Positions 1-18,295 of a DNA stretch of 64,000 nt are shown here, one piece after another (position 1 is the stretch's first letter; every line of letters begins with the position of its first letter). Origin of the DNA: a virus; the IMG/VR virus record IMGVR_UViG_3300025896_000028. One strand, 5' to 3'. A model generated the notes under the pieces. The model was not told where the DNA came from, did not search any database, and saw only the letters and a list, made by a program, of their open reading frames with translations. The translations under genes were made by a program, and so were the position numbers.

Positions 1-13
1 CTTAGAGTCAATA

Positions 14-1057
14 TTGCTTCAAGTTTGGTATCCGATTACCGTTGCTTCACTTTCTAGAGAAGTAAGAAAAATCGTTACTGCCGCATTCGTAAAAGGAACA
101 GCGTATGATGCTGGTCTTATCGACTTTCTAGTTGATTTCGTATTGAATGACTTCGGTTTCCGTGGTGTATCAAGTGTACAATCAGCTAAGATTGGTGGTT
201 CTGCTCACTTGGTGAACTTTAGAGGTTCAGATACCGTAGTAGCATCAAAATTAATCCGTGACCTTTATAACACAGAAACTGTGTATGGTTTATCAATCCC
301 AGCAACAGAGCACTCAATCATGACCCTAAACGGTGAAGAAGGTGAGTTAGCACTTATGATGCGTGTATTGAAAACTTATCCTACTGGATTGGTTGCGTGT
401 GTATCAGATTCATTTAACATATTCAGAGCGTGTTCTAAATATTGGGGAACTGATTTGAAAGAATTAGTTTTATCAAGACCAGCGACTCCAGGAAATCAAT
501 TGGTTATACGCCCAGATTCTGGTGATGTATTGATGACCTTAAAAGAAATCTTCAACATCTTATTCGATAAATTTGGTTACACAACCAATGAAAAAGGTTA
601 CAAGGTATTGCCACCACAAGTACGTGTTATTCAAGGTGATGGTGTGAACTTGGATTCAATCAAAGAAATCTACGCAATGTTAGATGAATTGAAAATCTCT
701 CCAGAGAACTTAGCGTTGGGTATGGGTGGTAAATTGCTACAAGCAGATATCAACAGAGATACGCAAAACTTCGCAACCAAAGCGTGTTATGCGATTGTTA
801 ATGGTGAAGAAAGAAATATCGTTAAGTCACCAACCGAAATGGATGCTGATGGTAACATTACAAAATCATTCAAAAAATCTAAACAAGGAAAACTTAAATT
901 GGTTAAGAATGACGATGGTACATACAGAACCGTTACATCAATGGATGCTGACTTTGATTCAGTAACAGATGAATTGATTGAAGTGTTTAGAAGTGGTGAA
1001 ATCCTTGTTGATTACACATTCGAAGAAATTAGAGAAAGAGCAAAAATAACAATTTAA
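14..1057 (+). CDS. Nicotinamide phosphoribosyltransferase (NAMPT/NadV)-like, 5'-truncated at window edge (could also be a Namat-type nicotinamide-ADPR transferase)
   Basis: ORF runs to the window start (track start is TTG at 14). C-terminal NAMPT-family sequence (..GMGGKLLQ.., ..VKSPTEMDADGN..). Confidence 0.8.
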   Translation: MLQVWYPITVASLSREVRKIVTAAFVKGTAYDAGLIDFLVDFVLNDFGFRGVSSVQSAKIGGSAHLVNFRGSDTVVASKLIRDLYNTETVYGLSIPATEHSIMTLNGEEGELALMMRVLKTYPTGLVACVSDSFNIFRACSKYWGTDLKELVLSRPATPGNQLVIRPDSGDVLMTLKEIFNILFDKFGYTTNEKGYKVLPPQVRVIQGDGVNLDSIKEIYAMLDELKISPENLALGMGGKLLQADINRDTQNFATKACYAIVNGEERNIVKSPTEMDADGNITKSFKKSKQGKLKLVKNDDGTYRTVTSMDADFDSVTDELIEVFRSGEILVDYTFEEIRERAKITI

Positions 1058-1069
1058 AAAAAGAAAAAC

Positions 1070-1675
1070 ATGTTAACATTATTAGCAAGTGCGACATTCA
1101 TACTATGGTTTAGTATTATCGCAGCGTTGGTGATTATTATATCACTAGAATTACAATCAGAAGGAACTGCGACAACAGCTTTTAGCTTAGCAATCGCATT
1201 ATTAATTTGGAACTACGGTGGTATTGCATGGGCCTTTATGACCGCCAACATACTCGTAACCGTTTTATTTATCGTAGGATATTTGGTATGTGGGGTTGTA
1301 TGGTCATTCTTAAAATGGAATGAGTTTGTAAAATCAGTATATCGAAAATTTAAAGCCACAAACGATAAGTTTGGTGCGTTAAAAAATCCAAATGATATCA
1401 TTAATTTATGTGAAAGATTAAGACTAGTTGGTATTAGTGTTTATGGTAGTGATGTTAAAACAATATCAGATATCGCAAGTAAAATCATGCCAAAAGGTTT
1501 AGATAACAAAGCATCGATTGTAGCTTGGATTTCATACTGGCCTTTATCATTATTGGGTACGTTATTAAATAACCCATTCCGAAGATTATTTGAATACACT
1601 TATAGTCTTGTATCTGGCTTGTATGACAAAATTAGTGCAAACCATAAAGCTAACGCACTTAAAAACTTAGAATAA
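1070..1675 (+). CDS. membrane protein (multiple TM helices)
   Basis: Hydrophobic segments at N-terminus and mid-protein; tightly packed after the NAMPT-like gene. Confidence 0.55.
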   Translation: MLTLLASATFILWFSIIAALVIIISLELQSEGTATTAFSLAIALLIWNYGGIAWAFMTANILVTVLFIVGYLVCGVVWSFLKWNEFVKSVYRKFKATNDKFGALKNPNDIINLCERLRLVGISVYGSDVKTISDIASKIMPKGLDNKASIVAWISYWPLSLLGTLLNNPFRRLFEYTYSLVSGLYDKISANHKANALKNLE

Positions 1676-2064
1676 TGGGGATGAGAGCTAAATTTGCTGT
1701 ATTGATTGAAACTAATCAGTACGCTGGGAACTTTGAAAGAGAAATGTGTGCACATCTAACTGGTCACGTTGGTGATTGCGAAGTTGGTGACGAATTAATC
1801 GATGAAACTGTTGCAGAATTTTTCGATGATGTTATCGGAAATGAAGCTGATGATAATGGTACGTATAGACCAGTAGCGTTGGGTAACGATATCGATGGTG
1901 GTACCAATCAAGGTGTTGTGATTTTCTTTGATGAAGAACCAACACAGGAACACTTGGATATGATAAAAGAAAGACTTGGAACTTTCACATATACCAAAGG
2001 GTTAGAAATAAAAAGTGTGGAATTGATTGAATTTCATAGAAGCACGACTAAAAAAACTATTTAA
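1675..2064 (+). CDS. hypothetical protein, acidic
   Basis: Start overlaps upstream stop (ATGA-type coupling); no recognisable motif. Confidence 0.5.
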   Translation: MGMRAKFAVLIETNQYAGNFEREMCAHLTGHVGDCEVGDELIDETVAEFFDDVIGNEADDNGTYRPVALGNDIDGGTNQGVVIFFDEEPTQEHLDMIKERLGTFTYTKGLEIKSVELIEFHRSTTKKTI

Positions 2065-2065
2065 A

Positions 2066-2569
2066 ATGAAAAATACAAACGAAAAAACAACTGACGAATT
2101 CGTATTCTTTTGGAATGGAATCTACAGTCAGTGGTATTCGTCTAAGTTCAGCATTGCTGGAATCGAATATAATTGCTGTGAGCAATACATGATGGCGATG
2201 AAAGCATTGACATTCAACGACCAAGAGAGTCATGATGCTATCATGGCTGCCGCTAGACCAGTTGACCAAAAATCTTTGGGTCGTACAGTTAAAAACTTTA
2301 ACACAGACAAATGGAATGAAGTGTGTCGAGAATTTGTTTACCAAGGTAACTTGGCTAAATTCACACAAAATCCTAGTCTAAAGGTTGAGTTATTGAAAAC
2401 TGATGACAAAGAAATTGTTGAGGCTAGTCCATACGACAAGATTTGGGGTATTGGAATGGGTGTTGACCACAGAAACATCGAAGATAAAAGCAAATGGCAA
2501 GGAAAAAACTGGTTAGGTGAAGCCATTATGCGAGTAAGAGAAACTTTTAAAAAACAAGAAAATGATTAG
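2066..2569 (+). CDS. NADAR (YbiA/DUF1768) domain protein
   Basis: FFWNGIYSQWY..FSIAGIEYNCCEQYMMAMKA..ASPYDKIWGIGMG matches the NADAR family. Start re-set to the ATG at ~2066 (track starts at 2027). Confidence 0.7.
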   Translation: MKNTNEKTTDEFVFFWNGIYSQWYSSKFSIAGIEYNCCEQYMMAMKALTFNDQESHDAIMAAARPVDQKSLGRTVKNFNTDKWNEVCREFVYQGNLAKFTQNPSLKVELLKTDDKEIVEASPYDKIWGIGMGVDHRNIEDKSKWQGKNWLGEAIMRVRETFKKQEND

Positions 2570-3011
2570 ATATATCGATGGTGACCTAGTAAAGGATGCC
2601 GAAAATTACGAAGTAATTGCACATTGTTGCAACTGTTTTTGCACTATGGGTGCTGGTATTGCCCCGCAAATCAAACATAAATTCCCAGATGCTTACGCTG
2701 CTGACTGCAAGACAGTTCAAGGGGACATTAACAAGCTAGGTACTATTTCATATAGTGAAGCTACAAAACCGATTGTTGTTAACTTGTATGGCCAATATGA
2801 CTATACTGGAAGACGAAGTGGTCAGATGGATTTAGACTATGAAGCTTTACGTTCTGCGTTGAAGTTGATGAAAGCTAAATTCTCTGGTAAAACATTTGGT
2901 TTACCTAAGATTGGTGCTGGGTTAGCTGGTGGTGATTGGGCTACAATTGAAGCAATCATTGACGAAGAACTTCGTGGTGAGTATGTTACGATTGTAAACT
3001 ATGTACCGTAA
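2562..3011 (+). CDS. macro domain (ADP-ribose binding/processing) protein
   Basis: CNCFCTMGAGIAPQIK..VVNLYGQ.. pattern typical of MacroD/Appr-1-p processing domains; overlaps the upstream gene end. Confidence 0.7.
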   Translation: MIRYIDGDLVKDAENYEVIAHCCNCFCTMGAGIAPQIKHKFPDAYAADCKTVQGDINKLGTISYSEATKPIVVNLYGQYDYTGRRSGQMDLDYEALRSALKLMKAKFSGKTFGLPKIGAGLAGGDWATIEAIIDEELRGEYVTIVNYVP

Positions 3012-3787
3012 TGCACTACATAATACAACAAAATGTATTTAGAGAAACTAACTATGACATCATATTTGAAGCCTTAACCAAATTAGGTTTAGAGTATGAA
3101 GTCATAGAATGTTTACCTAACTCTGATAAGTTTGAATTTGTGACTGATAGAAAAGATGTATTTACATTCGGCTCTATTAGAATGGCTAAACTAGCAACTG
3201 AAAACGGTTGGGAACCTGGTTCTTTCTTTGGTGGAAACCACGATTACTCAATATACTCCGAACACTACAAAGAAAACTTATTGAACTACGATTGTGAAAT
3301 CAAAGAGTTTGAAGAAGAATTTGAATGGAACTACGGTGAAATAAAATTCATAAGACCATGCAAGGATTCAAAGTTGTTTACAGGACAAGTATTTACCAAA
3401 ACCAAATGGGATGATATGCTTGAGCAACGTAAACAAAATATAAACTACACCAAATTAACGGAACCACAACTAATTCAAATCGGTATACCGAAAACCATAT
3501 ACAAAGAAGCCAGAACGTGGATTGTTGATGGAAAGATTGTAACCAGTTCTTATTATCGTTTTGGTCAGTATGTTGCTTACGAAGAAAACGTTGAACCAGA
3601 GGGCTTAGAATTCGCTCAGAGAATGGTTGACTTGTATCAAGTTGCTGAGTGTTTTGTGATGGACATTTGCCTAACACCAGATGGTTGGAAGATAGTTGAA
3701 ATCAATTGCATTAATTGTTCTGGTTTTTACAAGGGTGACATGCAAAAGGTTTTGATAGCTTTGGAGAATAAATACAACCCAATATAA
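3011..3787 (+). CDS. ATP-grasp fold protein (phage DUF4343/R2K-like)
   Basis: C-terminal RTWIVDGKIV..YRF..FVMDICLTPDGWKIVEINCINCSGFY resembles ATP-grasp ligases common in phage NAD/ADP-ribose neighbourhoods. Confidence 0.55.
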   Translation: MHYIIQQNVFRETNYDIIFEALTKLGLEYEVIECLPNSDKFEFVTDRKDVFTFGSIRMAKLATENGWEPGSFFGGNHDYSIYSEHYKENLLNYDCEIKEFEEEFEWNYGEIKFIRPCKDSKLFTGQVFTKTKWDDMLEQRKQNINYTKLTEPQLIQIGIPKTIYKEARTWIVDGKIVTSSYYRFGQYVAYEENVEPEGLEFAQRMVDLYQVAECFVMDICLTPDGWKIVEINCINCSGFYKGDMQKVLIALENKYNPI

Positions 3788-3862
3788 TATTTTAGGTTTC
3801 TCTTGCTTTTTAATAAAAGTATTAGTACCTTTGTTAAATAACAATTTATAAAATTAACATTA

Positions 3863-4042
3863 ATGAATGAGCTTGTTAAAGTAGGTGTTGCCAACGAAGG
3901 TGAACAAACATTTCCACTAAGTGTCGTAAAAGAATGGCAACCAACTAACCTAACATATATTGGAAGTGCGGTATTCTTCAAAGTAGAAGATACATATTTT
4001 TCAATGAACACTTTAGATTTTAGAAACATTTTTGAATCATAA
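3863..4042 (+). CDS. small hypothetical protein (59 aa, below ORF-track cutoff)
   Basis: ATG about 30 nt downstream of a TAccTTTG promoter motif at ~3831; plus-strand ORF MNELVKVGVANEGEQ.. fills the gap. The minus-strand ORF 3727..4029 in the track is judged spurious. Confidence 0.4.
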   Translation: MNELVKVGVANEGEQTFPLSVVKEWQPTNLTYIGSAVFFKVEDTYFSMNTLDFRNIFES

Positions 4043-4044
4043 CT

Positions 4045-4488
4045 ATGAGTATAATTAAATCGATTCTAACGAATCACTTCGAGTACAAGATTACTAGAAA
4101 CTGGGACCGAACATTTTGGGCTTTTGATATTCATGGTACAATTCTTAAACCAAACTATACATTTGGTAGTACGCCAGATGAATTTTATCCAATGGCAAAA
4201 CAAACATTACAGTTCATCAGTCAACGACCAGACATTGTAATGTTCCTTTATACCTGTTCACACCCTAACGAGGTTGATGAGTATTTGGAATTGTTCAAAA
4301 AGAATGACATTCATTTTAAGTATGTGAATGAGAACCCAGAGGTTCCGACACAAACTAATGGATATGGATGTTACGATAAAAAACCTTACATGAATGTTTT
4401 GTTTGAGGACAAAGCTGGATTTGACCCAGAGAACGATTGGGGTTTGGTTTTAAATTTATTAACCGCTAACTATAATGGCAAGGATTAG
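4045..4488 (+). CDS. hypothetical protein
   Basis: ORF in operon context; no recognisable motif. Confidence 0.5.
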   Translation: MSIIKSILTNHFEYKITRNWDRTFWAFDIHGTILKPNYTFGSTPDEFYPMAKQTLQFISQRPDIVMFLYTCSHPNEVDEYLELFKKNDIHFKYVNENPEVPTQTNGYGCYDKKPYMNVLFEDKAGFDPENDWGLVLNLLTANYNGKD

Positions 4489-4837
4489 TGATTTATTAAC
4501 GTACAACTCAAATAAATTTGATAACATGAAGATTAAAACTGCTTCCGATGAAACAGTTTTATTATCTAGTAGTGAAGTCAAAGAAATTCTAACCAAATAT
4601 CTAAACGATGAGTTAGACTTTTTCGCAAAAGGTATCACAAAAGAAACGAAATCAGCGTTGACTGAAAGAGTTAACTTTAGACTTAAACAAATTGAAAGTA
4701 GCCTTGTTAGACATGTTGATGATAAAATAAACGGTATAACGGAAAAAATAGTTTCTTTGTCTACGAATAGAGTTATTGAGGAAGAAGTAAACAGACGGGT
4801 TGAGGCTCGTTTGAAAAAAATAAAAGATTCACTTTAA
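4475..4837 (+). CDS. hypothetical coiled-coil protein
   Basis: Overlapping start; charged heptad-like sequence. Confidence 0.5.
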   Translation: MARISDLLTYNSNKFDNMKIKTASDETVLLSSSEVKEILTKYLNDELDFFAKGITKETKSALTERVNFRLKQIESSLVRHVDDKINGITEKIVSLSTNRVIEEEVNRRVEARLKKIKDSL

Positions 4838-4847
4838 AAGTAAAAAT

Positions 4848-5147
4848 ATGAAAACAAAATTATTCATGACAGTATTTGTGCTGTTATTATTGACTGGATG
4901 TGCTGATGTGGCACATATACAATTCCTTGACCCTAACCAAGAAATCTATGGTTTCTGGGGTGGTGTTTGGCACGGTATGATTATGTTCCCAGCATTTATC
5001 TGTAGTCTTTTCTCAGATAACATTGCTATCTACGCTATAAACAATAACGGTTTCTGGTATAACTTCGGTTATGTTGGTGGGTTAGGTATTATAATCAAGG
5101 GTATCAAAATCTTTTTTGCTGGTTTAAGAAGTTTAAACAATAGATAA
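4848..5147 (+). CDS. small membrane/lipoprotein
   Basis: Signal peptide with lipobox-like LLLLTGC; hydrophobic segments. Confidence 0.5.
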   Translation: MKTKLFMTVFVLLLLTGCADVAHIQFLDPNQEIYGFWGGVWHGMIMFPAFICSLFSDNIAIYAINNNGFWYNFGYVGGLGIIIKGIKIFFAGLRSLNNR

Positions 5148-5905
5148 TGAAAAAGAAAATCGTAATTTTTAGTGGTGCTGGTTTAGATAGAGAGTCGGGT
5201 GTATTAACATTCCGTGACTGTAAAGATGGCCTTTGGAATAACCACAAAATCGAAGATGTTGCTACACCAGAAGGATGGGCTAAAGACCGAAGTAAAGTTC
5301 TAGATTTTTATAATGAAAGAAGAAGACAAATGCCAGAAGTTGTACCTAATGATGCACATATTGGTTTAGTTGAATTAGAAAAAGAATTTGATGTAATACA
5401 CGTTACACAGAATGTAAGTGACTTATTGGAAAGAGCTGGGGCGACAAACATTATTCACTTGCATGGTGAGTTGACCAAAGCTAGAACAAGCTTCGCAATG
5501 AATAACCCTAATGTTGTTGCATCACAACACGTATATGATATTGGTTATGATGATATTAATTTGGGTGATTTAGATGCAGAATATGAATCTCAATTAAGAC
5601 CACATATTGTATGGTTTAGTGAATATCCATTTGGGGTTGATAAAGCAAATCAAGCATTTAGAGATGCTGATGTTGTTTTGATTATAGGTACAAGTCTTCA
5701 AATTAGTTATACCATTGGATTTTTTGGGTTAACAAAATTAGAGACTCCTATTATCTATATTGACCCAGAACCAAGTCATGACTTGGATTATACTTATCGA
5801 GAATTAAAAGTTGAATATATAACCAAGACAGCAGTTGAAGGTGTAACACAAGTAGTAAATAGATTATTAACACAAGCAATCGGAGACGATAAAAACGACA
5901 AATAA
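5147..5905 (+). CDS. Sir2-family protein lacking zinc-binding cysteines (SirTM-like)
   Basis: N-terminal VIFSGAGLDRESGVLTFRD Rossmann motif of sirtuins; no CxxC..CxxC module. Confidence 0.7.
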   Translation: MKKKIVIFSGAGLDRESGVLTFRDCKDGLWNNHKIEDVATPEGWAKDRSKVLDFYNERRRQMPEVVPNDAHIGLVELEKEFDVIHVTQNVSDLLERAGATNIIHLHGELTKARTSFAMNNPNVVASQHVYDIGYDDINLGDLDAEYESQLRPHIVWFSEYPFGVDKANQAFRDADVVLIIGTSLQISYTIGFFGLTKLETPIIYIDPEPSHDLDYTYRELKVEYITKTAVEGVTQVVNRLLTQAIGDDKNDK

Positions 5906-5906
5906 G

Positions 5907-6260
5907 ATGCATTATTTTGTAGAAGGAACAATTAGACACATTGGTGAAGTACAGACATTTGGTGATAAATTCAAAAAAAGAGAATTTATCCTTGAAACTG
6001 ATGAAGCTTACCCAGAAAAATTAAAGTTAGATTTCATTAATGACAATGTAGATGCCTTGGATACCTTTATGGTAAACGAAGTTGTTACAGTTGCGTTTGT
6101 GGTTAAGGGTAGTGAATATCAAGGTAAGCACTACACCAATTTACGAGCAATAGCAATTTGTGAAGTTATTGACGAAAGAGCAGCAAAAGAATTCGCTAAA
6201 GCGAAAAAAGATAACAAAAGAGTTCAGCAATTGCTTGACTCCGTTAAAGTGAAAAAATAA
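5907..6260 (+). CDS. DUF3127 family protein
   Basis: GEVQTFGDKFKKREFILETDEAYPEKLKLDF..VAFVVKGSEYQGKHYTNLRA matches the Bacteroidota DUF3127 pattern. Confidence 0.6.
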   Translation: MHYFVEGTIRHIGEVQTFGDKFKKREFILETDEAYPEKLKLDFINDNVDALDTFMVNEVVTVAFVVKGSEYQGKHYTNLRAIAICEVIDERAAKEFAKAKKDNKRVQQLLDSVKVKK

Positions 6261-6535
6261 TGAAAAAAATAATATCTATCCTAATTTTAGGGTTATTTAT
6301 ATCTTGCAATAAGCCAAGTGATAAATATGTAGATTCACCAACACGTTTTGTAATTACTGGAATGCAAGGTGATAATAGTTTACAGCAAATGTCAATTTAT
6401 GAAGTAGAAGTAATTGATGGTAATTACTTTTCACATAGAGATGGGAACAACTTATCTTTTAGGTTTACAGATTCAGTTAACAAATTTAAGTTAGGTGATA
6501 TTATTAATTTCGAAAGAAAAAACATCATAGAATAA
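6260..6535 (+). CDS. lipoprotein
   Basis: Signal peptide ILILGLFISC (lipobox). Confidence 0.5.
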   Translation: MKKIISILILGLFISCNKPSDKYVDSPTRFVITGMQGDNSLQQMSIYEVEVIDGNYFSHRDGNNLSFRFTDSVNKFKLGDIINFERKNIIE

Positions 6536-6891
6536 TGAGTGTATTAAAATTAGAGTTAAAAGAAGAACACGTAAAATTACTTAAACATTTACGTTGGAGT
6601 CTTAACCCTCAAAATTTCATTGTTGGAGTTTCTGAGGAAGATGAACCAGCACCATTTGGTGAGAATAACATATATGAGGCAATTGACCTTATTCTTAATG
6701 GTGTCCCAAAGGAATTCGACCCGTTTAACACTGAAGAAATTCCTCAGTATTCTGATGAACAAAAAGCTGAGTGGGATAAATTATATTCTGAATTGCCGAT
6801 GGCATTGGATATTATTTTATATCGAGGTAGCTTTGAGTTAGGTAATTATAAAACTAAATTCCACGATAGAGTGTGGAAAAAAACAAACTAA
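6535..6891 (+). CDS. hypothetical protein
   Basis: ORF in operon context; no recognisable motif. Confidence 0.5.
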   Translation: MSVLKLELKEEHVKLLKHLRWSLNPQNFIVGVSEEDEPAPFGENNIYEAIDLILNGVPKEFDPFNTEEIPQYSDEQKAEWDKLYSELPMALDIILYRGSFELGNYKTKFHDRVWKKTN

Positions 6892-7221
6892 AATGAAAAC
6901 ATTAAAATTAATTGGTTATTTTCTAGCGGCATTGCTAGTGTTATTTATCATCAAAGGTATGTTCTTTGGAATATTCCTATTCACTATTGTATTGAAATAC
7001 ATACTGATAGCTGCTGTCGTTGCTGGAGTTCTTTATTTGTTTAATCGAAAAGGTAATAAATAGTAAATGATTTTTCTTTATTATTTTCTTGGGTTGATAG
7101 TCTTTATACATGTTGTAAGAGGACTATCTTATGCAATACATAAGATTATCTTATTCAACAAATATTTAAAGAAAGTTAAAAGAGAACTAGTAAATTATTT
7201 CAAAAAACATAAATAAATATT

Positions 7222-7251
7222 TGTTTATTCAAAATTTTTTATGTACCTTTG
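7222..7251 (+). promoter_or_regulatory. Bacteroidota-type sigma-A promoter (TTTG-N20-TACCTTTG)
   Basis: tttgtttattcaaaattttttatgTACCTTTG lies 16 nt upstream of the ATG at 7268. Confidence 0.6.
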
Positions 7252-7267
7252 TTAAAAATAAATAACT

Positions 7268-8260
7268 ATGAATGATTCAGTATTAGTAGCATTAGATGGT
7301 AGAGAAGATTTAGCGAATAACGTTATTGATTTTATCAATAACAATTCAAAGATAAAAGAGAAAGTAAAGCTAGACATAATCAACAGTCAGAAATTTTCTG
7401 ATGGTGAGTTATGTGTGGATTTCGAAACATCAATTAGAGGCAAGCGAGTATATATTCTATCTAGTCCTAACAATTCAGATGAAATCATAAAGTTAAACCT
7501 AGCGATAGATGCCGCCAAACGTGCAGCTGCTAGAGAGATTATTCCAATCTTACCTTATTTTCCATACGCTCGTCAAGACAAGAAAGACCAATCACGTGGA
7601 CCTATCGGTGCCAAGGTTATGGTTGAAATGATTGAGCATCGTGGAGCAACAGGTGTTATCACATTTGATTTACATGCTGACCAAATCCAAGGGTTTTTCA
7701 ATATCCCAGTTACACACTTAGAAGGTAAAAACGTATTTGATTCATACATCGCTTCGATATATGATGAAGACACTATTCTTTGTGGACCAGATGCTGGTTC
7801 TGGTAAACGTGTTAAACGTATGAAAGACCAATTATCTAACTACCACGACATTTCAATCAATTATGTAATGTTGGATAAGACTCGTAAACAAGCCAACGTT
7901 ATTGACGATATGGTAATCATTGGTGATGTTAGTGGTAAGAACGTAATCATCTTGGATGATATGGTTGATACTGCTGGAACACTTTGCAAAGCCGCTGAAG
8001 TTATTATGGAAGCTGGTGCTAAAAGTGTAAGAGCAATCATTAGTCATGGTATCTGTTCTGGTCCAGCTTTGGCTCGTATTGAAAATTCAGTTCTAACTGA
8101 ATTGGTTATTAGTGATTCCTTAAGAAAACCAACAGATTACAATGGTATCTTTGGTAATGATAAAATCAACGTGATTAGCATGTCAAAACAAATAGGTTTA
8201 GCTGTTAGTGCTATCAATAGTAAAACAAGCTACGAAGGACTTAAAAAAGAAAGATTCTAA
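7268..8260 (+). CDS. ribose-phosphate pyrophosphokinase (PRPP synthetase) homolog; possibly an ADP-ribose pyrophosphokinase (Adps-type)
   Basis: KFSDGE, DLHADQIQGFFNIPV and PRPP-binding loop VIILDDMVDTAGT are Prs-family hallmarks. Confidence 0.85.
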   Translation: MNDSVLVALDGREDLANNVIDFINNNSKIKEKVKLDIINSQKFSDGELCVDFETSIRGKRVYILSSPNNSDEIIKLNLAIDAAKRAAAREIIPILPYFPYARQDKKDQSRGPIGAKVMVEMIEHRGATGVITFDLHADQIQGFFNIPVTHLEGKNVFDSYIASIYDEDTILCGPDAGSGKRVKRMKDQLSNYHDISINYVMLDKTRKQANVIDDMVIIGDVSGKNVIILDDMVDTAGTLCKAAEVIMEAGAKSVRAIISHGICSGPALARIENSVLTELVISDSLRKPTDYNGIFGNDKINVISMSKQIGLAVSAINSKTSYEGLKKERF

Positions 8261-8451
8261 TGGCTGACTTTAACTTAAACGAAAAAGAAGTGGAAACACT
8301 TGCAAAGCTTGAAGAAAGCGTGAATTTATTACACGGTAAAGTTGGTAAGGTGTCTTATATTTTTTCTCACACTGGTATCGGTGTTCATGTAAAAGTAAGA
8401 TTTGAAGACTACGGGATTGAAAAAGATATAACCGATTATGACTCATGGTAA
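8260..8451 (+). CDS. small hypothetical protein
   Basis: Coupled start (TAATG); no recognisable motif. Confidence 0.45.
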   Translation: MADFNLNEKEVETLAKLEESVNLLHGKVGKVSYIFSHTGIGVHVKVRFEDYGIEKDITDYDSW

Positions 8452-9095
8452 TGGAAAAAGGATATAAAATACTTCAGAAAGCTTTTGACACAGAATTCTT
8501 AGACTTTTTTAGTAGAGATTTTGAAACAGTTGCTTTGCAATGTAAAGACGAAAATGTTTTTAGAACCAAGAATGGTGATGTAAAACAAATACAGAATTGC
8601 CAAGGGTATCATTTGTTTATGCGTTTAGCTAAACACATAAAAAAAGTCTTGGGTTATGATGGTGAAGTTATTAACATGCAGTATTTTATCAAACATCCAG
8701 ATTACAAGATAACAGCCCCACATCAAGACGGTGCGTACTTTGACAACAATGATGATGATATTTTAACCTTTTGGATTCCTTTGCATGATGTTGATGTTTC
8801 GACTTCAACTATGTTCTATGCTGATTGGGATGGCAAACGAGAAATAATCAACCATGAAAATTGTGGTTCAAATGTAAGAACTAGAACTGGTAAGACTGGT
8901 ATGTCACAATATACATCCGAAATTCCATTGGAAGACTTTACACCAGTAAAGTTGAAGTATGGTGATTGTGTTGTCCATAATCAATTCTCAGTTCATTATT
9001 CAAACGAAAATTCAACAACAAAACCAAGAATAGCAATTACATGCATTCTTAAACTAAACAAAAATGGAGAATCCAAATTACCCACACAGATTTAG
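8445..9095 (+). CDS. 2OG-Fe(II)/phytanoyl-CoA dioxygenase-like oxygenase
   Basis: HQDGAYFD (HxD) and a downstream His in a jelly-roll-like context. Confidence 0.5.
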   Translation: MVMEKGYKILQKAFDTEFLDFFSRDFETVALQCKDENVFRTKNGDVKQIQNCQGYHLFMRLAKHIKKVLGYDGEVINMQYFIKHPDYKITAPHQDGAYFDNNDDDILTFWIPLHDVDVSTSTMFYADWDGKREIINHENCGSNVRTRTGKTGMSQYTSEIPLEDFTPVKLKYGDCVVHNQFSVHYSNENSTTKPRIAITCILKLNKNGESKLPTQI

Positions 9096-9318
9096 CTTCA
9101 CGTATTCCGACAACAATAGAAATCCTATTCAATGTACTGTACTATGTAAAGAAAAACCTAATTATATTGATTTGGAAGACTTGATTTACGTTAAGTTTAA
9201 TCATTACATAACTGAAAACAAATCAGTTAAAATTTCAAAAAACAACATTATTAAGTTTCTGAATAACAATGGTATAGAGTGTGTTAATAGAGCTTATTAC
9301 AAATCTAATAAAAAATAA
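9064..9318 (+). CDS. hypothetical protein
   Basis: ORF in operon context; no recognisable motif. Confidence 0.4.
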   Translation: MENPNYPHRFSFTYSDNNRNPIQCTVLCKEKPNYIDLEDLIYVKFNHYITENKSVKISKNNIIKFLNNNGIECVNRAYYKSNKK

Positions 9319-9319
9319 C

Positions 9320-10090
9320 ATGGGATTATCTTTAGGAGATAGAATGAAAGAATTCTACGAAAACAGAACAAAAACTTTTTTGAATAGAAGAACCATTACC
9401 ATCATTAGACTTGATGGGAAAGGATTCTCTAAATTCACTAAAAATTTAAACAAACCATTCGATGATGGATTCAGTGATGACATGGATGCAACAGCAATCT
9501 TTTTATGTGAGAACATTCAAGGTGCCAAGTTTGCTTATACACAATCTGACGAAATTAGCGTGGTGTTGTGCGACTATGATACACTTGAAACAAGTGCATG
9601 GTTCGACTATAGCGTACAAAAGATGACAAGTATTGCAGCCTCTTTGGCAACTGCTAAGTTCAACCAATTAAGACATTTAAGGTCAACAATGCAAGGTATG
9701 GAAGGGTTAGCTGAAAGCTTAAACAAACTAGCTTTCTTTGATGCTCGTGTATTCCAAGTTCCTACTGTTGATGAAATGGTTAACGCAATGATTTTCAGAC
9801 AGCAAGACTGTACTAGAAATAGTATTAGTATGGCAGCATCTGCTAACTTCTCTCACAAACTATTAGAGGGTAAATCTGGTAGTGATAAACAGGAAATGTT
9901 ATTTAACGAGAAGGGTATCAATTGGAATGACTATAAAACCAAGTATAAACGTGGTGTAGTTATCAAAAGAGTAGCTGATATAGACTATAGTGGTGAAGCA
10001 GCTGCTGTTAGACGTAACTGGGTACCATTAGAAACACCTATATTCACTAGTGATAGGGATTTTCTAATAAATCTTATGCCTAAATTGTAA
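9320..10090 (+). CDS. tRNA-His guanylyltransferase (Thg1)-like 3'-5' nucleotidyltransferase (TLP)
   Basis: IIRLDGKGFSKFT, YTQSDEISVVL and RQQDCTRNSI match Thg1/TLP catalytic motifs. Start set to the ATG at 9320 (track begins at 9281, overlapping the upstream gene). Confidence 0.8.
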   Translation: MGLSLGDRMKEFYENRTKTFLNRRTITIIRLDGKGFSKFTKNLNKPFDDGFSDDMDATAIFLCENIQGAKFAYTQSDEISVVLCDYDTLETSAWFDYSVQKMTSIAASLATAKFNQLRHLRSTMQGMEGLAESLNKLAFFDARVFQVPTVDEMVNAMIFRQQDCTRNSISMAASANFSHKLLEGKSGSDKQEMLFNEKGINWNDYKTKYKRGVVIKRVADIDYSGEAAAVRRNWVPLETPIFTSDRDFLINLMPKL

Positions 10091-10167
10091 ATAATTAGGT
10101 ATGAATGTTGCAAATATACAATTAAATTCGTATTTTTGTATAAAATAACAAGTTTTAAAATAATAAA

Positions 10168-11748
10168 ATGGATTTTAAAGAATTAACTACAGAACAAATT
10201 GACTATGCTAGGGGTATTTATCAAGATAAAACTTTATCATGGGATGATAGAATGAATATTTTGGTTAAATTCTTTGGTAAATCAGAAAGAACAGTAAGAA
10301 AATGGTGTTCAGAACGATTAAATTTCAAAGAAAAGACTGAAATCGAACCAGAACAGTACGTAAAAGCTAAAGCTAAGGTACATGATGGTACTAAAAAACG
10401 ATTTATCATCACTTGGGCACAGAATAACACACCAGTACATAAGGGTTTCCTTAAGAATATTGAAGCTTATGCTGAATATATCAATGCGGATGTCCACGTA
10501 ATTGCTGGTAGGTATAAAAACCCAACTAGTATATGGTCAAATGACCAAGAAAATGAAGAATTTTGGGCTGATGAAGTAGTAAAATACCTAGATGCCAATA
10601 GACATGACATACATAAGTATGTTTCTATCCTATCAGATATCAAGATACAAGCTACTGCGGTTAATCCTATGACTGGGTTACAAGCATTGAGTGGTGTTAA
10701 TTCATCTATCTTCGGTAGTCCAAAGGTACAAATGGAAATGATTCCAGTACTAGAGGGTAATAAGCCTAAGATTATGCTTACCACTGGTTCTATTACCAAG
10801 AAAAACTATACTGATTCTAAATCTGGTAAGACTGGTGAGTTTCACCACACGTTTGGGTTTGTTATTGTTGAAATCAAAGATGATGAAACATTCTTTGTTA
10901 GACAAGTAACTGCCGATGATAAAACAGGTAACTTTAGTGATTTATATTACAGAGTTGAAGGTGGTTCTATTAGTGGTTTAAACACTATAGCTGCTGCTGT
11001 TCTAGGTGATATTCACTACGGACACCATGACCAAGAAGTTCTTGATTCAACTATGGGATTGTTAGATTCATTAAAACCAAAACACGTGATTCTTCATGAT
11101 GTTTTTGATGGAAATTCTATCAGTCATCACGAAATGAAAGACCCTTTTATTCAATATGGTAAAGAAGTTGCTGGAACCAACGACTTGGGTAAAGAGATTG
11201 ATTTGATGTTAGATGGATTGGGTGCATTCGCTAAGTTCGATAACGTTGTGATTGTTAGAAGTAACCATGATGATTTCTTAGACCGTTGGTTAAAGAATGA
11301 AGATTGGAAGAAACAACCAACATACAAGAACTCAAGACTTTACATGAAAATGTCTGATATGTTGTTGGAACAATATGGCAATGACCCTTACAATGTGAAA
11401 GGTGTTATTCCATGTATCATAAACGAGAAATTCCCTAAGTTCATTACTCTTGGTAGAAGTGCCACATATAGAGTTAAAGATTGGGAGCTTGGACAACATG
11501 GTGATATTGGTTCAAACGGTAGCCGTGGTTCATTGTTACAATTCCGTAAATTGAACACCAAGATTATCGTAGGTCACTACCATAGTCCAGGAAGAAAAGA
11601 CGGAGCATTGGCAGTGGGAACATCAACCAAGTTAAGAGTTGGTTATAACAAAGGGGCCAGCACATGGTTACAATCACACGTGATTATCCATAACGATGGA
11701 AGGTCACAACACATAAACTTCATTAACGGAGAGTTTACAACATTTTAA
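10168..11748 (+). CDS. calcineurin-like metallophosphoesterase with long N-terminal extension
   Basis: Metallophosphoesterase motifs GDIHYGHHD, LHDVFDG, VRSNHDDF and GHYHSP. No Walker A motif. Confidence 0.7.
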   Translation: MDFKELTTEQIDYARGIYQDKTLSWDDRMNILVKFFGKSERTVRKWCSERLNFKEKTEIEPEQYVKAKAKVHDGTKKRFIITWAQNNTPVHKGFLKNIEAYAEYINADVHVIAGRYKNPTSIWSNDQENEEFWADEVVKYLDANRHDIHKYVSILSDIKIQATAVNPMTGLQALSGVNSSIFGSPKVQMEMIPVLEGNKPKIMLTTGSITKKNYTDSKSGKTGEFHHTFGFVIVEIKDDETFFVRQVTADDKTGNFSDLYYRVEGGSISGLNTIAAAVLGDIHYGHHDQEVLDSTMGLLDSLKPKHVILHDVFDGNSISHHEMKDPFIQYGKEVAGTNDLGKEIDLMLDGLGAFAKFDNVVIVRSNHDDFLDRWLKNEDWKKQPTYKNSRLYMKMSDMLLEQYGNDPYNVKGVIPCIINEKFPKFITLGRSATYRVKDWELGQHGDIGSNGSRGSLLQFRKLNTKIIVGHYHSPGRKDGALAVGTSTKLRVGYNKGASTWLQSHVIIHNDGRSQHINFINGEFTTF

Positions 11749-11749
11749 T

Positions 11750-12175
11750 ATGGAAGATAATACAATTGAGATTAATGTGGATTTTGATGGAACGTGTGTA
11801 ACACATAGTTTCCCAGATGTGGGGTCAGACATAGGTTCTGTCCCCGTATTGAAAAGACTGACAGATAAAGGTCATAGACTTATTATCTTCACCATGAGAA
11901 GCAATCGACCATTTACCAAGTATGATGGTACGATTGACAATAATGGTTTGAATGATGTGGTTAAATGGTTCGCAGACAATGACATACCAGTTTATGGTAT
12001 TCAAACGAATCCGACCCAACACACATGGACTGAAAGTCCTAAAAGCTACGCACCATTAATGATTGATGATAGTGCTTTGGGTTGTCCTTTGAAGTATGAT
12101 TTAAGAATCTCACCCAGACCTTTTGTTGACTGGGGTAAGGTTGAGGAATGGTTAGAAAGTAGAGGTTTAATTTAA
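11750..12175 (+). CDS. HAD-superfamily phosphatase-like protein
   Basis: N-terminal DFDGT (DxDGT) motif. Confidence 0.5.
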   Translation: MEDNTIEINVDFDGTCVTHSFPDVGSDIGSVPVLKRLTDKGHRLIIFTMRSNRPFTKYDGTIDNNGLNDVVKWFADNDIPVYGIQTNPTQHTWTESPKSYAPLMIDDSALGCPLKYDLRISPRPFVDWGKVEEWLESRGLI

Positions 12176-12187
12176 AAATAAAAAACA

Positions 12188-12370
12188 ATGTACAAATTAT
12201 CGATTACTACACTTAAAGCTTTAAAGGCAGCTTTGGTAAACTCAAATGAAGTACTAACTGAATTGAGGGAAACAAATGATTTGCCATGGATATCTGGTGC
12301 AATCAAAAAAAACGAGGAACAAATTAGAATATTAACAGAACAATATTACATCGATGAAAGCACAAATTGA
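12188..12370 (+). CDS. small hypothetical protein
   Basis: ORF in operon context; no recognisable motif. Confidence 0.4.
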   Translation: MYKLSITTLKALKAALVNSNEVLTELRETNDLPWISGAIKKNEEQIRILTEQYYIDESTN

Positions 12371-12686
12371 TTTCTCTGAATTTTTAGAGATAGAAGGAAA
12401 ATTGGAAATTAAAATTGGTCGCATAACAGCATCTGAATCGGTACCAAAAAGCTATGGTATTAAATTAACCGTTGATTTCGGTAACGATGATGTTAGAACA
12501 GTTTTCACCAATTTAGGTAAAACATATAAACCAGAACAATTTATTGGTTTTGTAACACCATTCGTAACCAACTTGGCTCCAAGCGAAATCAAAGGTGTTT
12601 TGAGTCAAGCAATGATACTAGTTCCCCAAAACCTTAATGGTGATGATGAATGGTATGATTATTCAATAGGAACTAAATTATTATAA
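12354..12686 (+). CDS. tRNA-binding (CsaA/Trbp111/EMAP-like OB-fold) protein
   Basis: F.EF..L.L.IG.I..AE..P.SY..KL.VDFG......VF.....Y.PE.L.G pattern of the tRNA_bind domain. Confidence 0.6.
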   Translation: MKAQIDFSEFLEIEGKLEIKIGRITASESVPKSYGIKLTVDFGNDDVRTVFTNLGKTYKPEQFIGFVTPFVTNLAPSEIKGVLSQAMILVPQNLNGDDEWYDYSIGTKLL

Positions 12687-12687
12687 T

Positions 12688-12969
12688 ATGAAAAAGATTT
12701 ACAAATTTGAGGCCGATTTTGGTCGCATGGGAGAATTAGAAGGCGTATTCGTATCAACTGATGAAAAATTAGAAGCGTTATACGGAAAAGAAATTTATTT
12801 TGGTGAAGTGTTAGGTAAACATTCGGAAGTTATTTTAACACTAGATGTAGAACATATCACTGAAGTAACTGATGATGAAAAATTCATTGAACTTTTCGTA
12901 TTCTACAGGTTAGAAAATGGTTACAATCCTTTTGATTACTACGAAGAAGACGAAGAAGACGAAGAATAA
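12688..12969 (+). CDS. hypothetical protein with poly-acidic C-terminus
   Basis: Ends EEDEEDEE, encoded by a gaagaagac repeat. Confidence 0.45.
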   Translation: MKKIYKFEADFGRMGELEGVFVSTDEKLEALYGKEIYFGEVLGKHSEVILTLDVEHITEVTDDEKFIELFVFYRLENGYNPFDYYEEDEEDEE

Positions 12970-13421
12970 TGGCAAAGGTAATTGCAGCTGGTTTATTTAT
13001 CGTAAGAAAGGATAAAAAACTATTGATTTGTCATCCGACAAATCATGCCGAAGACTTTTACAGCATACCCAAGGGTAAGGTAGAGAAAGATGAAACTTTT
13101 TTAGAGGGTGCTTTTAGAGAAACCTATGAAGAAACTAATCTAAGTTTAAAAGATAGTAATAAATTTACTATTTACCCTTTGCAATCAGTCAACTATACAC
13201 ATAAAAGAAAGATACTATATCCTTTTTTATGTTTAGAGAACTTTGATTCAAAGATTGAATGGGGTGCTGTTGAGTTAAAGTGTAATTCCGATGTAGAAGA
13301 TGCTCGTGGTAACTTCCCAGAAATGGATGGTTATAAATGGGTAACACTAGAAGAAGCTAGACCACTGTTACATAACACACAGGCAGCTTGTATCGATAAG
13401 ATTTTACAAATAATTGGATAA
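12969..13421 (+). CDS. NUDIX hydrolase
   Basis: Nudix box GKVEKDETFLEGAFRETYEETNL. Confidence 0.75.
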   Translation: MAKVIAAGLFIVRKDKKLLICHPTNHAEDFYSIPKGKVEKDETFLEGAFRETYEETNLSLKDSNKFTIYPLQSVNYTHKRKILYPFLCLENFDSKIEWGAVELKCNSDVEDARGNFPEMDGYKWVTLEEARPLLHNTQAACIDKILQIIG

Positions 13422-13423
13422 TC

Positions 13424-13645
13424 ATGCAAATAGATTTACATGGGACTAAACATGAAGATGTAATAAGAAAGATTGACATGTTTATATGGGAGTGTATTCA
13501 AAACAACACATCTCAAGGAAAGATAATAACTGGGAATTCTCAGATTATGAAACAAATAGTTACAAGTTGTTTGGCTGAACATGGGTTAACACCTAACAAT
13601 TTATTAGCAAATAACAACGTGGGTAGCATTACCTTTGACTTATAA
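13424..13645 (+). CDS. Smr-domain protein (small MutS-related nuclease domain)
   Basis: MQIDLHG...GKIITG pattern of Smr. Confidence 0.6.
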   Translation: MQIDLHGTKHEDVIRKIDMFIWECIQNNTSQGKIITGNSQIMKQIVTSCLAEHGLTPNNLLANNNVGSITFDL

Positions 13646-13896
13646 TGTGGTATGTGTATATCTTAGAGTGTGCCGATAGTACGTTGTACACTGGGATAAC
13701 AACAGACATACAAAAACGCATTTTAACGCACAATAAAGGTAAAGGTGCAAAATATACCAAGACAAGATTACCAGTTGCTCTAAGGGCTTCATTTGAAGCC
13801 GTAGATAGAAGTAACGCAAGCAAAGAAGAATATAGAATCAAACAACTAACTAGAAAAGAAAAGTTAGAATTTATAAACAAATTAAACAACAAATAA
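13645..13896 (+). CDS. GIY-YIG nuclease-domain protein
   Basis: WYVYILECADSTLYTGITTDIQKRILTHN. Confidence 0.7.
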   Translation: MWYVYILECADSTLYTGITTDIQKRILTHNKGKGAKYTKTRLPVALRASFEAVDRSNASKEEYRIKQLTRKEKLEFINKLNNK

Positions 13897-15155: not shown

Positions 15156-15176
15156 TAAATAATAATCTAATAGAGT

Positions 15177-15416
15177 ATGTATAGCGAAATAAAACATGTG
15201 GGTGAAGGTAAGTTTGAAGCTTTGATGGCTGATGGTTCCGTAAAGGAAGTCGGGCCGACACTTCGTGGGATAATCCGTTATACATACTTTGAAGATTATA
15301 CCCTTCCACCTTTGGGTTGGACTGTTAATCGAGAAGTTTTACTGAACGATTACCAAGAAAAGGTACTTCCAGATATTATTGCTGGTAAAATAACCCCGAA
15401 TACTATGAACTATTAA
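15177..15416 (+). CDS. hypothetical protein
   Basis: ORF in operon context; no recognisable motif. Confidence 0.4.
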   Translation: MYSEIKHVGEGKFEALMADGSVKEVGPTLRGIIRYTYFEDYTLPPLGWTVNREVLLNDYQEKVLPDIIAGKITPNTMNY

Positions 15417-15420
15417 AAAA

Positions 15421-15621
15421 ATGTTAATTACAAGAAGAATCGATTTAGGAGAATACATTGTTGAGATTGAATATGATGACGTTACAGGAGCTATAGAAGT
15501 TAGCGTATTGGATGAGCTAGAAGGAATTATTGAATACATGTCAATAACCAATGCTGAACCTAACAAGGATATCGATGAAGACAATGAAGGTCTTACTAAT
15601 TTGGACATTGGTTTAAATTAA
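15421..15621 (+). CDS. hypothetical acidic protein
   Basis: ORF in operon context; no recognisable motif. Confidence 0.4.
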   Translation: MLITRRIDLGEYIVEIEYDDVTGAIEVSVLDELEGIIEYMSITNAEPNKDIDEDNEGLTNLDIGLN

Positions 15622-15628
15622 AAGTTTT

Positions 15629-15907
15629 ATGGACGAAATAGATTTAAAAGTAGAAACTAGAACAATTACTGGTGGTAAAATCATTAAGATGACCGTTAGA
15701 AATATGTTCTATGTGGGTTTTATTGGTAAAATTAAAACAATACTTGTTTGGTTTTTTTACAAAAGAGGTATCTCATTCCGAGATTACCTAGATACACCAG
15801 TTACATATAGAGTAGAAATGGATGAACTTCACTGTTATCATCACATTGATGCTGAAAAAGAATTAGAAGAATTATTAAAAGAACAAGCAAAATGGGAAAA
15901 GCAATAG
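15629..15907 (+). CDS. hypothetical protein
   Basis: ORF in operon context; no recognisable motif. Confidence 0.4.
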   Translation: MDEIDLKVETRTITGGKIIKMTVRNMFYVGFIGKIKTILVWFFYKRGISFRDYLDTPVTYRVEMDELHCYHHIDAEKELEELLKEQAKWEKQ

Positions 15908-17376: not shown

Positions 17377-17378
17377 CC

Positions 17379-17407: not shown

Positions 17408-17412
17408 TGTAT

Positions 17413-17886: not shown

Positions 17887-17909
17887 TACCTTTGTAAACG
17901 AAATGAAAA

Positions 17910-18290: not shown

Positions 18291-18295
18291 AAACT

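Follow-up and report, generated by a model that had tools for sequence, protein, structure and literature searches.

The locus described here raises the question of which route to NAD+ its phage encodes. The window, that is, the whole stretch of DNA analysed, was the 64,000-nucleotide IMG/VR virus record IMGVR_UViG_3300025896_000028. The region studied in it was 1..12000, which was dense in open reading frames (ORFs) on the + strand, contiguous or overlapping with one another. The initial annotation had described here an NAMPT-family enzyme, a NADAR domain, a macro domain, an ATP-grasp, a Sir2 domain and a homolog of phosphoribosyl pyrophosphate (PRPP) synthetase (Prs), and all six were confirmed on the + strand at the positions given below, each above its Pfam gathering score. 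With no nicotinamide mononucleotide (NMN) adenylyltransferase (NMNAT) in sight, NAD+ reconstitution pathway 1 (NARP1) had been proposed, in which the Prs homolog would act as an ADP-ribose pyrophosphokinase (Adps) and the Nampt homolog as a nicotinamide ADPR-transferase (Namat), and NAD+ would be formed from ADP-ribose and nicotinamide via ADP-ribose pyrophosphate (ADPR-PP) without an NMNAT. The results pointed to a different route. Judged by its sequence, the region is very probably an NAD+ synthesis module of the NARP2 (NAD+ reconstitution pathway 2; NadV/NatV) type, carried by an uncultured jumbo-phage lineage together with a canonical Prs and ADP-ribose-processing enzymes. The DNA itself shows the genes, their families, the conserved motifs and the synteny; the enzymatic activities, the flux and a counter-defence role are predictions from these. 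When 1..8500 was searched by megablast in 50,697 phage records, no match was obtained; no close cultured relative was thus at hand, and searches were made at the protein level.

The absence of an NMNAT held within the window. Pfam scans of all other ORFs of at least 85 residues found no CTP_transf_like (NMNAT) domain in the window, a NadM profile run against its six-frame translation matched solely a small Nudix protein (12969..13421), in its Nudix part, and no NMNAT, NadR or PnuC was found inside it. This apparent absence was due to where the window starts. A 25-kb ENA contig (L001), found by exact-protein look-up of the gene at 1070..1675, differed from the window by 6 mismatches in 9,576 nucleotides and therefore came from the same phage. 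On this contig, a gene for a 327-residue protein (L001 5864-6847, corresponding to about -3067..-2084 of the window; Pfam NUDIX 1e-15) was located 1.6 kb upstream of the Nampt gene, which placed a predicted NMNAT about 2.1-3.1 kb to the left of the window. The initial annotation had itself named an NMNAT elsewhere in the genome as an observation that speaks against NARP1, and such a gene was found in the same phage. The case shows how the edge of a window can make a known pathway look new.

The 327-residue protein carried the HxGH motif within GRFETPYLHDGH and the SxTxxR motif as SHNATEIR. In a single-sequence search of the PDB, its best matches were the NadM-Nudix enzymes of Synechocystis and Francisella, and a profile of 22 homologs matched Francisella 2qjt (4e-26, over both domains) and Synechocystis 2qjo (3e-17), followed by archaeal NMNATs. 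Moreover, the top six PDB matches of its AlphaFold model (pLDDT 78.9) were the bifunctional enzymes 2qjt/2qjo, with E values of 1e-15 to 1e-18, and its homologs were labelled "bifunctional NMN adenylyltransferase/nudix hydrolase" by JGI. The two-domain architecture, HxGH, SxTxxR and a Nudix box with REUxEE were shared with Francisella tularensis 2qjt and Synechocystis slr0787 (2qjo), whereas the identity was about 21%, two residues were inserted in the GRFxPxHxGH motif and the spacing of the Nudix box was changed by one. By its motifs and its model, the protein is a predicted NadM-type bifunctional NMN adenylyltransferase/Nudix hydrolase (NadM-Nudix).

The Nampt gene was itself cut by the window edge. 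The ORF 14..1057 (+ strand; 1..1057 of the window belongs to the gene) held the C-terminal 351 codons, only two thirds of the protein (NadV type; Pfam NAPRTase 8.5e-41). The full Nampt (L001 8423-9988) had 521 residues with NAMPT_N and NAPRTase domains, and its start lay 508 nucleotides left of the window. Against solved structures, it scored 390-404 bits with mammalian NAMPT (human, rat and mouse; about 1e-116 to 7e-120), 324 bits with the Xanthomonas Nampt (1e-95), and 193-214 bits with the more distant 9w5w and 9ke8 (1e-62 and 1e-56). Equivalents of human Y18, F193, R196, D219, H247, R311, D313 and R392 were kept, as were the motifs DGYK, NDFGFRG, GSDTV, ATEHS, VIRPDSG, IQGDGV and GMGGKLLQADINRD.

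Namats are defined by an adenine "selectivity clamp", consisting of a longer beta1-beta2 loop and the helix GSX-phi-X-phi-X-phi-TRD with X aromatic, and the extended loop supplies the Arg that stacks on the adenine (PMC12774641). For comparison, six NARP1 pairs were taken from Sf18, SPA01, ICP1, Hakuna, CicholasNage and JDYN, each made up of an annotated prs and a downstream Nampt-family gene, with at most one small ORF between the two; four of these six second genes bore a Nampt-family annotation. A GSYTYQYxTRD-type motif, which may also be written GS[FY]x[FY]xxxTRD, was present in all six Namats, and the window Nampt had GMGGKLLQADINRD at this place. This sequence fits the form GxGGxxxQ seen in the Nampts of human (GSGGGLLQKLTRD), the KVP40-like phage ValKK3, Tunturi_5 and LR756504, the last being the closest. 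Furthermore, the beta1-beta2 loop was short (ESRGGKF-SETV), in the same form as in KVP40-like NadV. In a neighbour-joining tree, the Nampts including that of the window were split from the six Namats with 98% bootstrap, and the window protein grouped with the human and KVP40-type enzymes. On these sequence features, the window Nampt is assigned to the ordinary PRPP-using type, without the Namat selectivity clamp. The NCBIfam model NF006629 was passed by the window Nampt (508 bits, cut-off 405); it was rejected as a discriminator between Nampt and Namat, as the Sf18 Namat passed it too.

A divergent Nampt-family protein was found at the same position in the related locus L006 (1828..3471) and also in L039, L057, L065, L071 and L075. 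It had 547 residues and was 20% identical to the window protein, with the catalytic His, RPDS and GGG motifs kept, and Pfam gave a weak NAMPT_N match only.

The second gene on which NARP1 would depend, 7268..8260 (+ strand), encoded a class I ribose-phosphate pyrophosphokinase (Pfam Pribosyltran_N / Pribosyl_synth / Pribosyltran, 5.8e-29). Its closest structures in the PDB included human PRPS1 (1e-61) and B. subtilis Prs (6e-61). It scored 301.1 bits on NCBIfam NF002320 (cut-off 297) and 263.6 bits on TIGR01251 (cut-off 113), whereas the Sf18 Adps reached 104 of the 297 bits required by NF002320. The identity was 35-41% to the Prs of E. coli, a Listeria contig, a Microcystis phage and human, compared with 18-24% to the six Adps, and a neighbour-joining tree put the window protein with the Prs. 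The signatures of Adps are loss of the C-terminal alpha11-alpha12 module, which is called "defining", a remodelled donor (PP) loop and degenerate regulatory and allosteric sites (PMC13586617). In the window protein, the C-terminal segment (residues 300-330) was complete and aligned with the C-termini of the E. coli, Listeria-contig and Microcystis-phage Prs, while all six Adps ended before it. The regulatory loop FPYARQDKKDQSRGPIGAK was nearly identical to that of human PRPS1, and DLHADQIQGFF was kept, as were the loops for catalysis (DKTRKQANV) and for ribose-5-phosphate (DDMVDTAGT). The six Adps lacked the N- and C-terminal segments and QIQGFF, had DDICDGGxTF and differed in the regulatory loop. 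By every sequence test, 7268..8260 is a canonical class I PRPP synthetase and not an Adps, with a predicted specificity for ribose-5-phosphate; the comparison with Prs and Adps that the initial annotation had suggested thus came out on the side of Prs. PHROGs, which placed the protein in phrog_619, was rejected as a discriminator, this being a generic family.

NARP1 would explain a 64-kb window in which genes of the Prs and Nampt families occur within 8 kb and an NMNAT is missing. This proposal did not withstand the NMNAT gene that the phage carries 1.6 kb upstream of Nampt, the Nampt-type GMGGKLLQADINRD in place of the clamp motif, and a Prs that keeps the C-terminal alpha11-alpha12 module, the regulatory loop, QIQGFF and the DTAGT loop, that is closer to cellular Prs than to Adps and that passes the NCBIfam cut-off at which Adps fails. 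In addition, 97% of Adps genes immediately adjoin a Namat, and NARP1 and NARP2 have not been found together in one phage (bioRxiv 10.1101/2024.02.11.579819), whereas the two genes were 6.2 kb and about 15 ORFs apart here. NARP1 is accordingly considered extremely improbable for this phage. Compared with the known NARP1 systems (Adps plus Namat; SpbetaL1, Bas63), the module shares the PRPS-like and Nampt-like superfamilies and the predicted net outcome, NAD+ from ADP-ribose and nicotinamide. It differs in using the ancestral enzyme types, namely a Prs with C-terminal module and regulatory loop and a Nampt without the adenine clamp, in the separation of the genes and in the presence of an NMNAT. 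To tell NARP1 apart from NARP2 plus Prs by sequence, three features can be checked: whether the Namat clamp motif is there, whether the Prs homolog has the C-terminal module and ribose-5-phosphate loop that Adps lacks, and whether NadM-Nudix is encoded.

The same association was found in relatives. Synteny was mapped by tblastn on 80 IMG/VR loci and on two NCBI contigs of 339 kb and 376 kb, and the counts given here and below refer to the 26 distinct arrangements in which at least 9.9 kb of sequence preceded Prs. Relatives of the window Prs were 69-98% identical and very numerous in metagenomes, where their contigs reached 376 kb; the longest contigs carrying a related arrangement measured 306-376 kb, and the gene order recurred in dozens of contigs. 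With optional genes in brackets, the first half of the order was AAA ATPase, NadM-Nudix, (glutamate synthase), Nampt, membrane protein, (NADAR and/or NDT-like), macro, (R2K). The second half was 147-residue protein, Sir2, (DUF3127), 118-residue protein, Prs, (PhyH), Thg1-like, T5 A1-like phosphoesterase. Nampt and Sir2 were each present in 21 of the 26 arrangements, macro in 19, NADAR in 15 and R2K in one, and in other arrangements NADAR was replaced by, or fused to, an NDT-like domain. NadM-Nudix accompanied Nampt in 19 of the 21 Nampt-bearing arrangements; in the other two, Nampt lay within about 2 kb of the edge of the locus. Two further phages, Tunturi_5 and the distant megaphage LR756504, also had NadM-Nudix directly next to Nampt. 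Prs was kept in three arrangements without NAD genes, so it is syntenic with the NAD+ module and not strictly dependent on it.

The genes that follow Nampt suggest that ADP-ribose is also processed. A NADAR-domain protein, a candidate ADP-ribosyl glycohydrolase, was encoded at 2066..2569 (+ strand; Pfam NADAR 1.1e-51, residues 17-161 of 167). It scored 156 bits on NCBIfam TIGR02464 (cut-off 73.7), its best NCBIfam model was the YbiA-type N-glycosidase domain, and it matched the NADAR protein of PDB 8bau at 5e-15. Homologs were present in 763 phage records, those with 36-39% identity including proteins of 143-152 kb coliphages and of Klebsiella phages. Phage NADARs (AdfN) remove DarT1-made ADP-ribose from DNA and neutralise DarTG1, and outside the T4-like phages such anti-DarTG1 NADARs have been described in Bas32/Bas33 and Bas60 (PMC11825919). 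Like AdfN, the window protein is phage-encoded, of comparable size and made up of a NADAR domain alone, the likeness being at the family level. It differs from AdfN in that its gene overlaps the macro gene (translational coupling) and is embedded among NAD+ salvage genes.

The macro domain (2562..3011, + strand; Pfam Macro 5.2e-09) overlaps the NADAR stop by 8 nucleotides and probably belongs to the TARG1/DarG class. Its PDB matches were BT1257 (7e-12), the SCO6735-type 5e3b (6e-11) and TARG1 (3e-08). The phage macro protein AdfM (PhiKZ gp104), which is DarG2-like, neutralises DarTG2 (PMC13309987), and the catalytic Asn and the MGAGxA motif of the window protein aligned with it. In common with the AdfM/TARG1/BT1257 class, the protein consists of a single macro domain without a DarT-binding domain and has the catalytic Asn and MGAGxA, whereas its similarity to AdfM was weak and its closest structures were BT1257 and SCO6735. 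A narrower assignment as a TARG1 orthologue was rejected in favour of the broader class, as the Lys/Asp pair of TARG1 appeared not to be aligned. Since the NADAR, macro and R2K genes overlap at their stop and start codons, their joint expression is suggested. NADAR and macro are most likely, by family, glycohydrolases of the orphan-antitoxin type.

Taken in order, the predicted steps give a route through PRPP and NMN and not through ADPR-PP. Prs would turn ribose-5-phosphate plus ATP into PRPP and AMP, Nampt would join PRPP to nicotinamide to give NMN, and the NMNAT domain of NadM-Nudix would make NAD+ from NMN and ATP. The Nudix domain would probably split ADP-ribose into AMP and ribose-5-phosphate, returning the ribose to the Prs step. 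Jointly, these steps could rebuild NAD+ from nicotinamide and ADP-ribose, the products of NAD+-depleting defences. NADAR and macro would strip ADP-ribose from phage DNA under a DarT1- or DarT2-type attack, or from soluble derivatives, and so free ADP-ribose, and Sir2 (CobB-like, see below) would consume NAD+. To this extent, the earlier view of the locus as a phage NAD+/ADP-ribose neighbourhood that plausibly restores NAD+ and removes ADP-ribose was supported.

The closest described system is NadV-NatV of KVP40. NARP2 consists of Nampt and Nmnat, defeats Thoeris and DSR2 and consumes PRPP (bioRxiv 10.1101/2024.02.11.579819). The two phages share a PRPP-type Nampt and a bifunctional NadM-type NMNAT/Nudix, which are separated by none or one gene here and in close relatives. 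The window Nampt was 39% identical to NadV of the KVP40-like ValKK3, with the same ESRGGKF loop and the GMGGxLLQ motif. Unlike KVP40, the present phage has a canonical Prs in the same conserved block and is thus predicted to be able to make its own PRPP. Furthermore, a glutamate-synthase-domain gene lies between NadM and Nampt, and NADAR, macro and Sir2 are interleaved. NadM-Nudix was also very divergent from the NadM proteins of cultured phages (about 20-25% identical). If Prs feeds the salvage route, this would answer the PRPP-cost problem raised for NARP2 and would provide a three-gene cassette for phages that resist NAD+-depleting defences.

The glutamate-synthase-domain gene (L001 6847..8343, about -2084..-588 of the window) encodes 498 residues with an FMN-binding domain (Pfam 1e-88), and it was found in three of the 26 arrangements. 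A DUF3307 gene was present a few kb upstream of Nampt both in L001 (2832..3230) and in the KVP40-like Vibrio phage ValKK3 (L004 1056..1385), which hints at an old shared synteny of the region.

Several observations weigh against a NARP2-type module with a dedicated Prs and ADP-ribose-processing enzymes. The NMNAT domain is divergent, with 20.6 bits on Pfam CTP_transf_like (cut-off 21), and the NCBIfam PRK05379 models scored NadM-Nudix far under their cut-offs. A proline downstream of the Nudix box is typical of ADP-ribose pyrophosphatases. This residue was not seen in the Nudix domain of NadM-Nudix, and the spacing of the box is changed by one residue, so the hydrolysis of ADP-ribose is predicted at the family level only. 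The only NCBIfam match of the macro domain was to the DarG macro part (1.2e-10, 41 bits against a cut-off of 250), and its BLASTP match to AdfM (6e-05) covered only 30 residues. The KVP40 Nampt makes a little NAD+ from ADPR-PP in vitro (bioRxiv 10.1101/2024.02.11.579819); such weak activity of a KVP40-type enzyme also speaks for NARP1, and a minor use of ADPR-PP by the window Nampt is conceivable. Finally, Prs follows the Nampt gene at a distance of 6.2 kb and about 15 ORFs, and it persists in the three arrangements without NAD genes (L061, L076 and L077).

Prs may serve general nucleotide synthesis rather than NAD+ specifically. In a broader form of this idea, the same enzymes would act as a metabolic booster, supplying NAD+ for NAD+-dependent phage enzymes and PRPP for the nucleotide synthesis of a phage with a large genome, with counter-defence not being the primary purpose. 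The persistence of Prs in those three relatives favours it, as do the genes for nucleotide and RNA metabolism in the flanks (DHFR, Thg1-like, NDT-like, Nudix, RNase R-like and IF3) and the finding that NARP2 raises NAD+ even without a defence system (bioRxiv 10.1101/2024.02.11.579819). KVP40 NadV/NatV, however, abolishes Thoeris and DSR2 defence when tested (same source), and among the NAD genes lie those for NADAR and for a macro domain assigned to the DarG class, whose relatives are proven anti-defence factors in other phages. A primarily metabolic role is thus regarded as a possibility of the weaker sort, and the two purposes are not mutually exclusive.

Returning to the NARP2-type module with its own Prs, a stronger version can be formulated in which the block forms a closed, self-sufficient loop from ADP-ribose through ribose-5-phosphate, PRPP and NMN to NAD+. 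In this loop, ADP-ribose released by NADAR, macro and host NADases would pass to Nudix, Prs, Nampt and NMNAT in turn, while the NADAR-macro pair would disarm both DarTG1 and DarTG2. This version is put forward tentatively, as something that we rather doubt. If true, it would represent a four-activity functional equivalent of NARP1 assembled from ancestral enzyme types, and the PRPP cost, a suggested limit on NARP2, would be removed. In a previous study, phage macro, NADAR and Nudix domains were proposed to process mainly soluble ADP-ribose derivatives (Iyer et al., PMC9503650). The anti-DarTG and the soluble-derivative readings both end in free ADP-ribose, which could be recycled by the Nudix domain of NadM. 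As a coupled pair, NADAR and macro make a candidate dual anti-DarTG device that could be tested.

The initial annotation had also stated that the combination of genes was not a described arrangement. Phage NADAR genes adjoining NadM and NadV have already been noted (Iyer et al., PMC9503650), and the statement held only for details. These are the Prs at the same locus, the coupling of NADAR to macro and an R2K that occurs now and then; the rest are known kinds of genes in a new and abundant jumbo-phage lineage. Full-length canonical Prs was rare among catalogued phages, as 33 of the 50,697 records matched over at least 80% of the query. Most of these were 460-735 kb metagenomic megaphages or unverified Listeria, Enterococcus or Staphylococcus "phage" contigs resembling host DNA.

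The Sir2 domain (5147..5905, + strand; Pfam SIR2 2.8e-30; phrog_2162) bears on another proposal, according to which a zinc-less, SirTM-type Sir2 transferase would write ADP-ribosylation marks that the macro domain, NADAR and an ADP-ribosylglycohydrolase (ARH) would reverse. The absence of a zinc-cysteine module was confirmed, as no Cys was present in the zinc-module region, and among orthologs the zinc cysteines had decayed to varying degrees. In addition, Ser replaced the conserved Asp of TQNxD, and the chemistry may be altered. The macro gene lies 2.1 kb upstream of Sir2, and sirtuin-macro pairs are known as toxin/antitoxin-like systems (PMC9503650), which likewise speaks for such a cycle. 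The closest solved relatives of the window Sir2, however, were deacylases, E. coli CobB ranking first (1.4e-42), followed by Af1 Sir2 and Sirt5, and no SirTM chain was among the 60 best PDB matches. The NCBIfam matches were all CobB/Sir2 deacylase models, under their cut-offs. The motifs SGAGLDRESG, FYNERRRQ (with the class III Tyr-x-x-Arg), TQNVSDLLERAG and HLHGEL were recognised, and the catalytic His was kept. Homologs occurred in 1,008 phage records, including phages of the T5-like, slur12-type coliphage and KVP40-like kinds. By sequence, the protein is best described as a CobB-like (class III-like) phage Sir2 belonging to this large group, and the SirTM assignment was not borne out.

The gene neighbourhood also disagreed with a writer/eraser cycle. 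The SirTM operon reportedly contains an adjacent macro gene together with the lipoate-carrier partners GcvH-L and LplA2. Here, five ORFs separate macro from Sir2, and no GcvH-L or LplA2 partner was seen in the region. The most constant neighbour of Sir2 was the 147-residue protein immediately upstream (25 of 26 arrangements, against 19 for macro), the macro gene being several ORFs away. The ARH gene (61891..62721, + strand; Pfam ADP_ribosyl_GH 6.4e-23) was 54 kb from the island. Moreover, the main viral sirtuin clade has been predicted to act in RNA repair and is not coupled to an adjacent macro gene (PMC9503650). The cycle is consequently judged very unlikely. The window Sir2 shares with that clade the CobB-like core and, in the window or its relatives, Thg1-like, T5 A1-like phosphoesterase and HAD_SAK neighbours; these RNA-repair-type neighbours fit the RNA-repair idea, the membership of the window Sir2 in the clade being putative. 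Compared with the phage Sir2 group, the window allele has lost the zinc module and has TQNVSDLL instead of TQNVDDLH.

Two allele types of Sir2, TQNVDDLH and TQNV(S/T)DLL, were seen among the relatives, the window having the second. The relative L018 (IMGVR_UViG_3300033984_000473), which has the first, was compared over 5491..8800 with 2570..5905 of the window. Most of the flanking proteins were 94-99% identical, while an NDT-like gene stood between NADAR and macro, R2K was missing and the Sir2 allele was only 64% identical. This difference points to swapping of cassettes and alleles inside the island.

The ATP-grasp (3011..3787, + strand), whose start overlaps the macro stop codon, belongs to the R2K clade (Pfam R2K_3, PF14243, 2.5e-21). 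It scored 77 bits on R2K_3 (cut-off 26.3) and 50 bits on R2K_2, and matched phrog_7313, of unknown function, at 2.5e-57. R2K ATP-grasps are predicted to ligate peptides onto proteins (Burroughs et al. 2015). The gene was also found in 65 other jumbo-phage records, and in each of those that listed the positions of both it was distant from the NAD genes; for instance, it lay tens to hundreds of kb from Nampt in Tunturi_5, RsoM2USA and phiRSL1. With its single occurrence among the 26 arrangements, it was rejected as a core partner of macro and NADAR, contrary to its place in the combination first proposed, and is a rare accessory passenger in the island.

Several neighbours without an assigned family were also conserved. 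Directly after Nampt, 1070..1675 (+ strand) encoded a 201-residue predicted membrane protein with no Pfam or PHROG match, and a homolog stood between Nampt and NADAR, NDT or macro in 10 of the 26 arrangements. The 147-residue protein (4045..4488, + strand) had no Pfam match and hit phrog_1238 at 1e-08. It was always upstream of Sir2, and its DIHGT segment resembled the HAD phosphatase motif loosely only. The 118-residue protein upstream of Prs (6535..6891, + strand), without a family match, was present in 25 of the 26 arrangements. A DUF3127 protein (5907..6260, + strand; Pfam 1.1e-20), likely to be similar to single-stranded DNA-binding proteins (phrog_4932 "single strand DNA binding protein", 1.7e-20), was a variable neighbour, found in seven of the 26.

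Downstream of Prs on the + strand were a PhyH-like dioxygenase (8445..9095; Pfam PhyH 1.8e-10), a Thg1-like enzyme (9281..10090; Pfam Thg1 2.8e-30) and a 526-residue T5 A1-like metallophosphoesterase (10168..11748; phrog_1745, T5 A1 "DNA transfer protein", 6.6e-151). Phrog_221 was also matched in this block (8445..11748). Nearly all relatives kept the T5 A1-like gene just downstream, after Prs and Thg1. Scans of 1..12000 gave 46 promoter-like sites against a shuffled mean of 52, and 9 terminator-like sites against 4.9; the counts were taken as no higher than in shuffled sequence, and operon boundaries therefore cannot be stated.

Farther to the right, the NDT-like gene was located at 15892..16359 and the IF3 gene at 16882..17376. 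Elsewhere in 10168..46657, an RNase R/II-like protein with RNB, cold-shock and S1 domains, a tRNA-binding domain protein and a sigma-70 factor were encoded. A T4-like classification of the phage, for which a borderline Gp23 match on a 159-residue ORF was the sole support, is not asserted. SmpB was encoded within 29483..46657 (Pfam 1.5e-52); no tmRNA gene was found in the window by ARAGORN or Rfam. The segment 29000..31300 was nearly free of ORFs, had a raised G+C content (0.39) and carried a tRNA cluster. ARAGORN predicted a tRNA-Gln at 30978..31049 of the window and Rfam three other tRNAs (30595..30668, 30782..30880 and 31157..31255), so that the two programs agreed on no single gene. The last two of the Rfam tRNAs were 99 nucleotides each and may have long variable arms or introns.

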